Of a DNA stretch of 13,341 nt, positions 1,701-13,341 are shown piece by piece. The DNA lies in contig CATOCA020000051.1 in the NCBI GenBank assembly GCA_951406725.2, positions 1-13,341 on the forward strand. Reading direction: 5' to 3'. How positions within the stretch are numbered: the stretch's first letter is position 1; each line of letters begins with the position of its first letter. The position numbers and the translations under genes are program-made. The notes under the pieces were generated by a model, which made no database searches, was not told the DNA's origin, and saw only the letters and a program-made list of their open reading frames with translations. This DNA is from Octopus vulgaris (taxonomy: Eukaryota).

Positions 1701-1760
1701 ATCTTCCTGTCTTCTCTCGAACATAATTAGATAGATAAACGGATAGACGGATTATCCAGC

Positions 1761-2672
1761 ATGTCCAGAGCATGGAGACGTGACGAGCTGGATTTATTCG
1801 TACGAGCATGGGAGTGCGCCGGCGGAGATAGCCCTAGCGAGGTGATTGCGGCTGCGCTGAAGAGCAGAGGCTACAAGAGGACAGCGGCTCAGATGGAGCG
1901 AAAGAGACAGGAATTCGTGCGCTCATATGCGCTTGTACGGTCGCACATTGGCGCACTTGATGCCATCTTTGAGAACGAGCGGGGCAAAGATGGCAAGAAT
2001 GGAGACGATGAAAGAAGTCACCCCCACCTGGTGGACGCCCAGGAGGAGGTTTTGAATGAGAAACCTGCCCGGGAAGTGAACCCAGGTGCAAGTTCTCCAA
2101 CCGGCAGCAAGGGCCATGGAGACGGAGAACCCGGTGAAGAGGTAGAGGGAGGAAGAAGAACTAAAAGAAGGACTGGAAGAGCTAAAGGAAAAGAAAAAGC
2201 TCAAGCAGGACCAAAGAGTGAAACAACCAGGAGTAGAAGTGGAACCGCAAAGGATGGAACCAAACAGCGCACACGGGTGTGTATGTTCTACCTGAGAGGT
2301 TCCTGCTGGCACGGAAAGGAAGGTGCAGGCTGCCGCTTTGCACATCGGGGACCCTGCCACAGAGACACGAGGCAGATGGACAAACCATCAACACAAAGAA
2401 AAGGGATGGACTACGCACCACCTGCCCCAAAGCGGAGGTACGCAGATGTTGTGCGCGCCACAAACAGCCAACATGATGTTGTCGAAAGAGCAGCTGCTGA
2501 GCAACAATCTTTTTTGTGCATGGCACAAAAGATTGTACAGCAGCTGACCTGGCTTCATCAAACCCAAGCCCGCAGGTGGGACTACCCACTATATACCAGA
2601 CCACCACAGCAAACAGACACAGGATGGACACCGCCGGCAACAACGTACACCTCACCTCGATACTCCTACTGA
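1761..2672 (+). CDS. LINE ORF1 protein (303 aa): N-terminal Myb/SANT-like (trihelix-type) domain, charged linker, CCCH zinc finger, Pro/Thr/Gln-rich tail
   Basis: Intact ORF immediately upstream of and overlapping ORF2. Residues 5-56 read WRRDELDLFVRAW...IAAALKSRGYKRTAAQMERKRQEFVRSY. A C-x7-C-x8-C-x3-H motif (CMFYLRGSCWHGKEGAGCRFAH) is at nt 2280-2345. There are basic NLS-like tracts (RRTKRR, PKRR) and a YADVV motif. Confidence 0.85.
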   Translation: MSRAWRRDELDLFVRAWECAGGDSPSEVIAAALKSRGYKRTAAQMERKRQEFVRSYALVRSHIGALDAIFENERGKDGKNGDDERSHPHLVDAQEEVLNEKPAREVNPGASSPTGSKGHGDGEPGEEVEGGRRTKRRTGRAKGKEKAQAGPKSETTRSRSGTAKDGTKQRTRVCMFYLRGSCWHGKEGAGCRFAHRGPCHRDTRQMDKPSTQRKGMDYAPPAPKRRYADVVRATNSQHDVVERAAAEQQSFLCMAQKIVQQLTWLHQTQARRWDYPLYTRPPQQTDTGWTPPATTYTSPRYSY

Positions 2673-3403
2673 ACATCAGAGGACTGCAAACACTCAGTAA
2701 CAGGACAAAGATCCCGTTCCTGAGAGACTTTGTTGCATGCAATCAAGCCTTATGCATAGCACTTACAGAAACGCACCTGAAACCGGACATAGCAGATGCG
2801 GAGTTACACATACCACAGTATGCTGTACTACGGACCGACAGGAAAGAAAGGAGTCATGGAGGTGTTGCTATGTACATCCGTGAGGACCTCACACCCCAGG
2901 TCCTCTTGTCATACTCAAACTCGGTGTGTGACACACTAATTGTACATATTAGGCAACTTGATGTAGTTGTGTGTGCTACATATCGCCCTCCAGATGCCCC
3001 AAGCCATGTGGGCAAGTTTGAAGACTGCCTTATAAAAATAGAAGAAATTCTAACCACATTAGAACAACACATAGGTGTGCTTCTTATGGGAGACTTCAAT
3101 CTGCCCAATGTCAGATGGCCCGAGGGCCTTTCTCTCCCAGGAATGACAAGATGTGAACGAGGACAGGCGAGGTCCCTCCTGAACCTCATCAACACCCTGT
3201 ACATGGAGCAGGTAATACTCCAACCAACCAGGGCAGGTAACACACTGGATCTCTGCTTCACAAATGACATGGATCTCATCCATAATGTGAAAGTGACACC
3301 GACACTACTCTCGGATCACAACATGATAGAGCTGACCATGTACGGGCCAAAAGAGAGCACGGACATGCAGCCTACAAGAAACCTCAAAATCTTTCCAGCT
3401 TGA
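2624..3403 (+). CDS. ORF2 N-terminal fragment: apurinic/apyrimidinic-like (APE/EEP) endonuclease domain
   Basis: Motifs LLNIRGL, LTETHL, DRKERSHGGVAMYI, YRPP, GDFNLP, PTRAGNTLDL and SDH are all present in the expected order. The frame is open from 2501. Confidence 0.92.
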   Translation: MDTAGNNVHLTSILLLNIRGLQTLSNRTKIPFLRDFVACNQALCIALTETHLKPDIADAELHIPQYAVLRTDRKERSHGGVAMYIREDLTPQVLLSYSNSVCDTLIVHIRQLDVVVCATYRPPDAPSHVGKFEDCLIKIEEILTTLEQHIGVLLMGDFNLPNVRWPEGLSLPGMTRCERGQARSLLNLINTLYMEQVILQPTRAGNTLDLCFTNDMDLIHNVKVTPTLLSDHNMIELTMYGPKESTDMQPTRNLKIFPA

Positions 3404-5364
3404 ACTACCATAAGGCAAACTGGAAACAAATTGAGAAAGAGATCCTCAAACAAAACTGGCCTAAATGTCTCTCCTCGCCAGACATCGACGTGAAACTTCA
3501 ACAATTCATGTCTGTAATGCAAGCCATATGCTACAAATGTGTCCCAGAGAGAAAGGCCACTGTACACAAGAACAAAATCCCCAGAGAGAGGAAAATTTTA
3601 ATGAGACGGCGTACGAAATTTTCAAATCGCCTAAACAAACAGATTGAAAGCAGTGAAAAGTCCCGCCTAAAAATAAAACTGTTGGAAATCGAAAAATGTC
3701 TGCAACTCTCCCATGAAAAAGAAAGAGCAGACAAAGAAGCCTGGGCTATAGAAAACATAAAATCTAACCCCAGAGCTTTCTACAGGTATGCCAAAGAAAC
3801 AGCTACAGTGCACTGTAGAATAGGGCCACTCCTTGAAAAGGATGGCACACTTACAGGAAAACCAATGAGGGTAAGTGAAATACTGAATGAGCAATTCAAG
3901 AGTGTTTTCACTCCACCCCTTGGGCATCTCCAAATCACCAATCCAACTGACTTTTTTACCACTGCAGATATAAAATCAGAGGCGGCGACGATAGATTACA
4001 TCGATATAAAGGAAGACGATGTAACCAAGGCTATAGATGAAATGAAAACAGACTCAGCTACTGGCCCCGATGGATTCCCGGCAATCCTCCTAAAAGCATG
4101 TAAGAGAGTCCTAGCAAGACCACTGCAGTTCCTCTTTCAGAGCTTCCTTGCAGCTGGCAAACTTCCAGGAAAACTGAAGGAAGGTAAAATATGCCCCATT
4201 CATAAAGGAGGTAGCAGAGCGGAAGCCAAGAACTATAGACCTATCTCTCTGACCTCACACATCAGCAAGGTCATGGAACGAATAGTCAGAAGGAAGCTGA
4301 TCACCTTCCTTGAAGAGAATGACTTGCTGCCCGACACCCAACATGGTTTCCGACCAGGGAGAAGCTGTTTAACTCAGCTCCTACAACACTATGACTGGGT
4401 GCTGAAACGGCTGCTCAACCACTCAAATGTGGAAGTGATATATCTCGACTTTGCAAAGGCCTTTGATAAAGTCGATCATGGAATGATATGTCACAAACTG
4501 CGTGATCTCAACATAGTTGGAAAACTGGGAGAATGGCTTCATGACTTTCTGAAGGATAGAAGTCAGGTGGTAGTAGCCAATGGGGCCACCTCCATTAACA
4601 CACAAATAGTGAGCGGTGTTCCGCAGGGCACTGTTCTGGGACCACTACTGTTCATAATGGCCCTCTCAGACATGCCCTCAGCCACGCAGAGAGCCACGAT
4701 CACAAGTTATGCAGATGATACAAAAGTCTCACAGGCAATACAGAACCCTGAGGACACTAAACACCTGCAATGTGAGCTGGACGAAATATACAAGTGGGCT
4801 GAAAAGAATAGCATGCAGTTCAATGCTGGAAAGTTTCAAGCTTTATACTATCAGCATGCAAAACTGAATGCAATACCCAATGAATACACTGGACCCGGAG
4901 GGATTGCAATCCCAGAGGCACAATCAGTGCGTGACCTGGGTATTCACATGAGTGATGACGCGACCTTTCATGTACATGTTGCTAAACTGACAATGAAATG
5001 TAGACGGCTGGCTGGATGGATTCTTAGAACCTTTAGAACAAGAGAACAAGAAACCATGATGGTCCTCTGGAAGACACTTGTCCTAAGCCACTTTGACTAT
5101 TGCTCTCAGCTATGGTCACCATCCAGTGTCAAGTTGATCACAGAACTTGAGGCGATCCAACGAAGCTACACAAAGAAGATAGCCTCTATGCAGAATGTAA
5201 GCTACTGGGAAAGACTCAAGAGATTAAAATTATATTCCCTGGAGCGTAGGCGGGAAAGATATGCCATAATATACATCTGGAAGATCCTGGAGGGAAGTGT
5301 CCTGAACTTTGGCATCGAGAGTTACGCAAATGCCAGAACTGGGCGGCCACTGCGTGGTGCCTAG
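3382..5364 (+). CDS. ORF2 central fragment: non-LTR reverse transcriptase
   Basis: Motifs NYHKANW, TGPDG, NYRPISLTS, QHGFRPGRSC, YLDFAKAFDKVDH, SGVPQGTVLGPLLF, YADD (nt 4708-4719) and RDLGI. The annotated start at 3400 is TTG, so this is not an independent gene. Confidence 0.95.
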   Translation, partial: PQNLSSLNYHKANWKQIEKEILKQNWPKCLSSPDIDVKLQQFMSVMQAICYKCVPERKATVHKNKIPRERKILMRRRTKFSNRLNKQIESSEKSRLKIKLLEIEKCLQLSHEKERADKEAWAIENIKSNPRAFYRYAKETATVHCRIGPLLEKDGTLTGKPMRVSEILNEQFKSVFTPPLGHLQITNPTDFFTTADIKSEAATIDYIDIKEDDVTKAIDEMKTDSATGPDGFPAILLKACKRVLARPLQFLFQSFLAAGKLPGKLKEGKICPIHKGGSRAEAKNYRPISLTSHISKVMERIVRRKLITFLEENDLLPDTQHGFRPGRSCLTQLLQHYDWVLKRLLNHSNVEVIYLDFAKAFDKVDHGMICHKLRDLNIVGKLGEWLHDFLKDRSQVVVANGATSINTQIVSGVPQGTVLGPLLFIMALSDMPSATQRATITSYADDTKVSQAIQNPEDTKHLQCELDEIYKWAEKNSMQFNAGKFQALYYQHAKLNAIPNEYTGPGGIAIPEAQSVRDLGIHMSDDATFHVHVAKLTMKCRRLAGWILRTFRTREQETMMVLWKTLVLSHFDYCSQLWSPSSVKLITELEAIQRSYTKKIASMQNVSYWERLKRLKLYSLERRRERYAIIYIWKILEGSVLNFGIESYANARTGRPLRGA

Positions 5365-5620
5365 GACTCCAAACCTGCCATCAAGATGTAGGACAAGATT
5401 CTGTGATAGCCTGGGCTTCCGAGGCCCACAGCTCTTCAATATCCTCCCGAAGAACCTGAGAGACCTGCATGGGGTGGATACAGATGTCTTTAAAATGAAG
5501 CTGGATCTCTTCCTGTCAGGTGTCCCAGATGAACCAACTTCACGGCAGGAGGGGCAGATGAGGGCAGCTGCATCGAACTCTCTCATGCACCAAATAGCAG
5601 TTGCTAGAAAGCCTCCATGA
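5348..5620 (+). CDS. ORF2 C-terminal fragment after the +1 frameshift
   Basis: HCVVP...[16 protein letters not shown]...[16 protein letters not shown]...SNSL matches the 'FNxLP...FKxxLD' end of CR1-group ORF2. The TGA stop is at 5618-5620. Confidence 0.8.
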
Positions 5621-5712: not shown

Positions 5713-12511
<6,799 letters not shown>

Positions 12512-12702
12512 GACTACAAAATTAGAGAATGGAGAAACATACTTAAATCAGTAAAACATCAACTATCCGATGATACTCAATCCATACTTTAATACACCAT
12601 TACATATGAGTAAAGGCAATATATAAAATGAAATGAGATATACAGTAATAGTAAAAGTAAAAAGATAAAGAGATATAAGTAAAAAATTTCAAATATAATA
12701 TG

Positions 12703-12840
12703 CAAATAAATCAAAACTGACAGCTGTTTCGGCAGTGAGGACAGTCATACCTCATTTAACCTATAAGCCATAAAGGCAGGTATAAATGAGGCATTAACAA
12801 GGATGCCCCACGGCCTCTTCAGAGAATTAAATTAAATTTG
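12703..12840 (-). ncRNA. Type I hammerhead ribozyme (Penelope/retrozyme-like) with extended stem II
   Basis: The minus strand reads ...AAUUCU-CUGAAGA(12822-12816)-GGC...GCC(stem II, 12815-12731)-GAAA(12730-12727)-C-AGCU-GUC^AG.... All conserved core nucleotides are present, including the G10.1-C11.1 and A15.1-U16.1 pairs. Predicted cleavage is between 12719 and 12718. Stem I is imperfect. Confidence 0.8.
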
Positions 12841-13172
12841 TTATAATAGTGAAAAATATATAATCATATACATATAAATATAAAAATATAAAAATGTAAA
12901 ATATAAAAACTTATACATCATAATGCTACACTTATATAATATAATACACATTTGTACAAAAAGGAAGGTAAACAGAACAAAATAAAACAAAATATATAAC
13001 AGTGTATATATTAATATTAATAAGTACCGATATTATACATATTTGGCTAATAGTTTTTTTTTTATAAAAAAAAAAAAAAAAAGGGCTAACACATATGGAG
13101 ATGAAAAATAATAATTAAATCCGTGGTACAGTTCATAAAATTCTAAAGCTATAAAAGTTAATAAAAATTACT

Positions 13173-13174
<2 letters not shown>

Positions 13175-13219
<45 letters not shown>

Positions 13220-13231
13220 TAATAATAATAA
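13175..13231. repeat. (TAA)n microsatellite
   Basis: (TAA)14 at 13175-13216, then AAA, then (TAA)4. Confidence 0.95.
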
Positions 13232-13341
13232 AAAATACTAAAAATAGATACAGTTAAGTTAGCACCAAGTCCATCCTTTCAAGATCGAAATAACTATGAG
13301 TTAAGAAATGCTGACCACTAGGTAAAGAAAATTTAGATTAA

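Follow-up and report, generated by a model that had tools for sequence, protein, structure and literature searches.

The hammerhead ribozyme motif on the minus strand near the end of the window (the whole stretch analysed, which is one entire 13,341-nt contig of the 2.8-Gb Octopus vulgaris genome) is, near certainly, a pseudo-LTR (pLTR) hammerhead of a Penelope-like element (PLE). With a probability of roughly 0.7, we read it as the pLTR hammerhead of a protein-coding, recently amplified PLE, likely of the Hydra clade, that likely cleaves only when two copies pair via stem III; judged from the copies in the assembly, the element is an autonomous, young PLE, most likely of that clade. Hammerheads in PLE repeats are to be expected and have been published, as has the Hydra clade; what differs from known PLEs is a long covarying stem II, a larger element, and a tail of ~180 nt.

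The hammerhead motif and its long stem II

Re-reading of the window sequence shows the minus-strand hammerhead core to be complete, as the original prediction had it (Table 1). The same reading agrees with its predicted cut, with the G-C closing pair of stem II (G10.1-C11.1), and with a stem I laid out as two proximal pairs (CU/AG), two U-U mismatches, UUAA/UUGA, and then CAAAU/AUUUG. Positions such as C3, A9, G10.1, and C17 follow the general hammerhead numbering. The motif has the CUGANGA / GAAA / NUH core of a type I hammerhead, a three-way junction, and an open helix I. Distal stem I is weak, conservation ending after 2-3 pairs and covariation support being absent there; the 85-nt length of stem II had been passed over in the original prediction, and terminal loop II would lie too far out for the canonical loop I-loop II contact.

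Table 1. Features of the window at and beside the hammerhead motif
Feature	Position	Strand	Basis	Remark
Type I hammerhead motif, including weak distal stem I	12703-12840	minus	sequence and fold	
Stem I proximal pairs, 5' strand	12823-12824	minus	invariant in 11/11 subfamily representatives	pairs with 12718-12717
Core box CUGAAGA (C3-A9)	12822-12816	minus	sequence	
Stem II, long hairpin, 85 nt	12815-12731	minus	11-row alignment	28 consensus pairs, 4 with compensatory changes
Core box GAA (G12-A14)	12730-12728	minus	sequence	
Stem III palindrome ACAGCUGU, 8 nt	12727-12720	minus	sequence	
Predicted cleavage site GUC^AG	12719/12718	minus	sequence and hammerhead consensus	C17 = 12719
3' pLTR of ~5.6-kb Penelope-like element	12513-13341	minus		cut off by contig end at 13341
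(TA)n-rich microsatellite (TA/TG)n, 6.8 kb	about 5713-12512		repeat scan	element's 3' end adjoins it; insertion target

From 47 distinct family copies we chose and aligned 11 with less than 96% mutual similarity. A core conserved above its flanks had been set beforehand as the yardstick, and in these 11 rows conservation was 0.976 in the core and 0.894 in stem II, as against 0.70 and 0.78 in the flanks. Across the 32 named pairs, 98% of cells were paired and 14 cells were compensatory, and the covariation score was 0.181, each of these values being as high in 0 of 500 shuffles; the count of 4 covarying pairs lacks significance, 189 of 500 shuffles reaching it, and the 11 rows are related. Stem II and stem III of this type I hammerhead are supported by covariation and palindromes, and the alignment indicates that stem II is under selection as a helix.

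Similar motifs are abundant in the genome. A pattern with the cores 55-85 nt apart gave 4,366 genomic matches and 2 in the control. The hammerhead motifs in the fetched loci fall into 15 clusters, which are unrelated and whose stems have no common sequence (long stem II was selected by the search itself, the genome patterns requiring 40-110 nt, and 3 of the 15 clusters are singletons without folding signal that may be chance). The commonest stem III tetranucleotide is self-complementary, with G-U allowed, in 14 of the 15, which points to dimer function, and 8 different perfect stem III palindromes occur across the clusters, although the outer R/Y positions of stem III are partly imposed by the 55-85-nt search pattern. 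Rfam gave no hammerhead match in 12512-13341 even at E<=10, its scan of the whole window being dominated by microsatellite and miRNA artefacts; a related long-stem cluster reached 29.3 bits with Hammerhead_1 (RF00163), against a cut-off of 34. Core and topology are like those of RF00163, yet the model misses the present motif, and, as the long stem II makes plain, many hammerheads of animals escape the standard models. Judged by its sequence and that of its relatives, the hammerhead of 12703-12840 is real and probably functional.

A protein-coding Penelope-like element

The original prediction had proposed a genome search for copies, tandems, and neighboring RT/GIY-YIG ORFs, and all three were found. 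For the 17-nt core across the cut site, 1,754 exact matches were counted in the genome (879+875) and 0 in the control, and a 441-nt query returned 1,494 first-look candidates, of which the 40 scored were 99-100% identical. In the fetched loci, the segment 12513-13341 is 94-99% identical to terminal repeats at both ends of ~5.6-kb elements, and the cut-to-cut spacing is 5,571-5,634 nt in all 12 tandem loci measured. From the cut site, the ATG is 518 nt downstream and the stop codon about 2.2 kb upstream, the 3' UTR being long. Most genomic copies are truncated; among near-full pLTR copies, 77 of 99 differ from the window by <=8 mismatches, in loci biased to the best matches, so the family is young. 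The element is arranged as full-length partial tandems and head-to-head inversions, and we found no short tandem arrays of this pLTR family in the loci examined. The window's own pLTR is of the "short" end type, without tail, its 3' end lying about 206 nt past the cut. It had been claimed that no ORF marks the hammerhead; this holds within the window only because the contig breaks off 605 nt upstream of the cut site, and intact genomic copies encode a 947-aa protein.

A query with the RT half of this protein gave 87 matches, three of which extend over the entire query, with open frames 955-962 codons long. Unbroken frames that reach the normal C-terminus occur at loci L041 (960 codons, 947 aa counted from the ATG) and L043 (955 codons). 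Most assembly copies lose the frame at homopolymer runs, one run being kept in frame in 4 of 18. We considered and rejected a programmed RT-EN frameshift, because the breaks fall at differing runs in each copy and natural unbroken copies exist; assembly error or decay is the more likely cause. Short-read contigs of the runs X1 and X2 (putative RNA) agree with the unbroken state of the ORF; one X2 contig, of 3,512 nt, covers 2074-5200 of locus L045, and no intron-like joint was seen within the 4.2 kb compared with these putative RNA contigs.

For the 947-aa protein we found 75 homologs, nearly all of them unnamed and 31-45% identical to it. Pfam found no domain in it and a PDB sequence-profile search gave 0 hits; an AlphaFold model built on the homologs (pLDDT 79) has telomerase RTs as its top 4 Foldseek matches in the PDB, as expected for a PLE, and Atlas look-alikes include GIY-YIG/RVT clusters, with PF01541 on 26-50% of members. 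By position the motifs are RWR37, DKT138, YRDD376, CNCRNKNKC809, YIG843, CSLC907, and CIH935, and the C-terminal VVY...YIG motif is conserved in the homologs. Set against the Hydra clade as defined in section 11 of PMC8557442, i) DKT, not DKG, stands at residue 138, and in 56 of the 75 homologs; ii) a CxCX5C linker (809-817) is present, as are CxxC (907-910) and CxH (935-937), the latter two flanking the E/N residues; iii) CCHH is absent from the GIY-YIG core, residues 818-906 holding only C823, C832, and H858; iv) insertion is into (TA)n, at 104 of 107 ends; and v) the RWK position is RWR, the homologs having RWK in 32/75 and RWR in 15/75. To judge from these motifs, the protein matches the Hydra clade save for RWR in place of RWK and for its larger size, and it resembles by eye the named Hydra proteins of the PMC8557442 supplement. 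Its ~250 aa in excess of typical homologs reflect two Asn-rich disordered inserts (residues 507-626 and 716-804 in the L041 protein); shorter inserts occur at the same two positions in some homologs. As in EN+ PLEs generally, a single ORF joins a telomerase-related RT to a GIY-YIG region, the pLTR carries a hammerhead, pLTRs arise from partial tandems, arms are inverted and 5'-truncated, and a tail marks one end.

Insertion ends, folding, and a possible cleavage cycle

In 64 loci we located 107 arm ends. Going by where the alignment stops, 46 lie at +198 to +216 from the cut (true end about +205) and 53 at or past +375 (true end about +385), the other 8 falling elsewhere; the tail that separates short from long 3' ends is ~180 nt, and TA-rich sequence adjoins 104 of the 107. 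Of 46 head-to-head pairs in 70 loci, 44 join a short end to a long one. Because many of these loci had been selected as close pairs, the junction positions are biased, whereas the end types are not. No insertion 3' end among the 107 lies at the cut, and the insertions carry intact ribozymes, so the template would have to span the cut; as proposed in PMC4209133, it might be a re-ligated circle or an uncleaved multimer. Nor are 5' ends enriched there: genome-wide, (TA)n-flanked copies begin at the cut in 5 loci, and in 9 and 6 loci at the two positions used as controls, the first of which is itself TA-like. Among the first 100 listed copies that carry the 25-mer downstream of the cut, of which 99 were traced, 6 start at -7 to +5, only one of them exactly at +1, and 2 between -47 and -8.

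In the inverted insertions of loci L091-L130, a sample biased to close pairs, head-to-head junctions fall at short palindromes or hairpins and cluster at about -500 to -595 and in stem II (-61 to -86). Such junctions suggest snap-back template switching.

The predicted fold of the 143-nt segment has -44.1 kcal/mol (z = -4.44; 0 of 200 shuffles as low). In this lowest-energy monomer fold, stem III is mispaired with the CUG of the core, and the fold of the active monomer, at -38.9, lies 5.2 kcal/mol above it. Within a monomer, stem III offers 2 bp and a tetraloop, and between two copies an 8-bp duplex of -11.1 kcal/mol. A rough estimate for the active dimer is -90.7, as against -88.2 for two monomers, and an unconstrained two-strand fold, at -95.3, is an inactive pairing below the active-dimer estimate. 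In these models folding favors dimer over monomer function, activity itself being a prediction. PLE hammerheads are described as cleaving at low, dimer-dependent levels (PMC4209133, PMC6765202). A natural U4C core (CCGANGA) occurs in several subfamilies (L031:8077, L057, L058, L112, L090), and the CCGAAGA form of this box is common in a sister subfamily; the predicted CUG/CAG mispairing would be weakened by it.

On our preferred reading, transcription reading through a partial tandem would yield an RNA with two hammerheads ~5.58 kb apart; these would swap stem III strands to form the 8-bp duplex and cut at GUC^A, freeing a unit-length RNA; this RNA would be re-ligated into a circle, or else the uncleaved precursor would act as template; and the RT/endonuclease of the element, having nicked (TA)n, would copy beyond a single unit, so that insertions would carry an intact ribozyme and end at +205 or +385 past the cut. 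As for stem II, its most likely role would be to serve the protein encoded by the element as a platform for binding or spacing.

The same element could also be one whose hammerhead hardly cleaves in vivo, being a folded RNA signal (for protein binding, RT pausing, or priming) or a passenger while the uncleaved precursor transposes. We consider this unlikely, though it accommodates the placement of all sampled insertion ends away from the cut, the want of 5'-end enrichment there, the mispaired folds predicted for monomer and dimer, and the U4C cores common in a sister subfamily, as well as the slow cleavage of PLE hammerheads in vitro (PMC4209133) and the spread of Naiads without hammerheads (PMC8557442). 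Against it, 15 unrelated clusters have retained the palindrome and the GUH triplet along with the catalytic nucleotides, beyond the needs of a merely structural signal. Somewhat less probable again is that cleavage serves chiefly to release element RNA from read-through transcripts, the uncapped 5' end then serving to start translation of the ORF. In the UTRs of chrysoviruses, hammerheads are reported to aid cap-independent translation, as are HDV-like ribozymes in retrotransposons (PMC13725137), and the 518 nt from cut to ATG would suit such a role; copies of more than one unit are left unexplained by it, and it would fit as an added role beside the cleavage cycle outlined above.

Two further readings concern what the motif is rather than what it does. 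The original prediction was right about a type I hammerhead, its tiny palindromic stem III, the Penelope link, and probable dimer function; its proposal of a non-autonomous element or retrozyme has the absence of an adjacent ORF in the window and the truncation of most genomic copies in its favor, and nevertheless we regard it as very improbable. Near-identical repeats flank RT and GIY-YIG ORFs at ~5.6-kb spacing, so the "non-autonomous" part of the claim fails, and the unit is coding and ~5.6 kb long where non-LTR retrozymes are short non-coding tandem repeats, of which the pLTR family shows no arrays in the loci examined. A chance match to a short consensus, to which the silence of Rfam might be thought to point, we reject as having next to no probability: the core pattern is present as a single copy in the window, as originally stated, where 0.01 is expected (2 of 200 shuffles had one), and both the excess of genomic over control matches and the covariation speak against it.

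Known relatives and other loci

The named Hydra-clade PLEs (for example Hydra-1_Obim, Hydra-1_Amil, and Penelope-n_HM; Craig et al. 2021, PMC8557442) share with the present element a single ORF with RT and C-terminal GIY-YIG, DKT, CxCX5C, CxxC, CxH, and no CCHH; insertion into (TA)n, partial tandems, and arms that are inverted and 5'-truncated; and, close to the 3' end, a type I hammerhead on the sense strand whose stem III is nearly palindromic. Hydra elements are there said to carry hammerheads "universally", although the function of hammerheads in PLEs is given as unclear. The tandem, inverted, and tail pattern is that of section 6 of the same paper. The differences are of size and detail: the unit is ~5.6 kb, whereas Hydra PLEs are generally <3 kb (1.1-3.0 kb in the table of PMC8557442); the protein has 947 aa against a median of 701 among the 75 homologs; RWR replaces the RWK that PMC8557442 gives for the clade; the tail is ~180 nt rather than the 30-40 bp of PLE insertions in section 6; and stem II with its loop takes 85 nt, against at most ~26 nt in the 26 Hydra rows of File S2, a spike-moss PLE that is marked in that file as deviating having ~53 nt. 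Compared by eye, Hydra-1_Obim differs from the present element in hammerhead and in length.

Among the PLE hammerheads of Cervera & de la Pena (2014, PMC4209133) the closest is the D. virilis type with palindromic helix III. Common to these and to ours are the pLTR site, G10.1-C11.1, a short helix I, the palindromic helix III, tandem and opposite-strand pairs, and the proposed dimer cleavage and circular template; "large" helix II there means 6-8 bp, against about 28 bp here, and unlike those hammerheads ours has no extra nucleotide between A9 and G10.1. Non-LTR retrozymes, as described in PMC7229834 and bioRxiv 10.64898/2026.07.22.740005, are also type I, with a weak palindromic helix III, and related to PLE pLTRs, but are short, non-coding, and tandem where the present element is coding and ~5.6 kb. 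A full-text literature search found no hammerheads with a 50-100-nt stem II described for animal PLEs; the "long helix II" of PMC13725137 has 6 bp, and the passages of PMC13282606 that list recently active Penelope families of one cephalopod make no mention of ribozymes.

A young high-copy family with intact coding copies, fixed ends, and U4C and palindrome variants provides material for the dimer and circle model. We wish to raise, as a speculation that we think rather doubtful, that thousands of hammerheads with 50-100-nt arms have radiated in this genome invisibly to Rfam, the arm being a functional RNA domain on which, for example, the telomerase-like RT encoded by an enlarged Hydra-type PLE may bind or prime. 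If true, an active, intact family with two fixed 3' ends (+205 and +385) would be an unusually clean system, able to settle whether PLEs transpose via a ribozyme-cut, re-circularized RNA.

Other hammerheads occur elsewhere in the genome. Loci L076-L079 and L088-L090 (G000:C1) hold a long-stem family (ACGUACGU) in ~594-bp tandem arrays that are retrozyme-like and distinct from the 12513-13341 pLTR. Its unit is 88-89% identical to locus L069, where it stands head-to-head with a Hydra-like RT fragment; this one locus suggests that the ~594-bp retrozymes may derive from a Hydra-type pLTR. Another cluster (ACAAUUGU), with 536-nt spacing, lies at 86-700 of L060 beside a rearranged copy of the main element.

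In the rest of the window, positions 23-1700 hold two copies of a 372-bp repeat (98% alike), a unit that contains GCCGAAAC and in which no hammerhead was recognized; beyond the two copies lie AT-rich arrays whose periods are 54, 87, and 91. A separate LINE occupies 1731-5600 on the plus strand, with an ORF1-like frame that has weak Myb/SANT and CCCH matches, and with an APE endonuclease (2501-3403) and an RT (3286-5364) in different frames, which amounts to one frame break. Its 3' end passes into (AATC)n and then into the microsatellite, inside which a short non-repetitive island lies at about 8230-8310.
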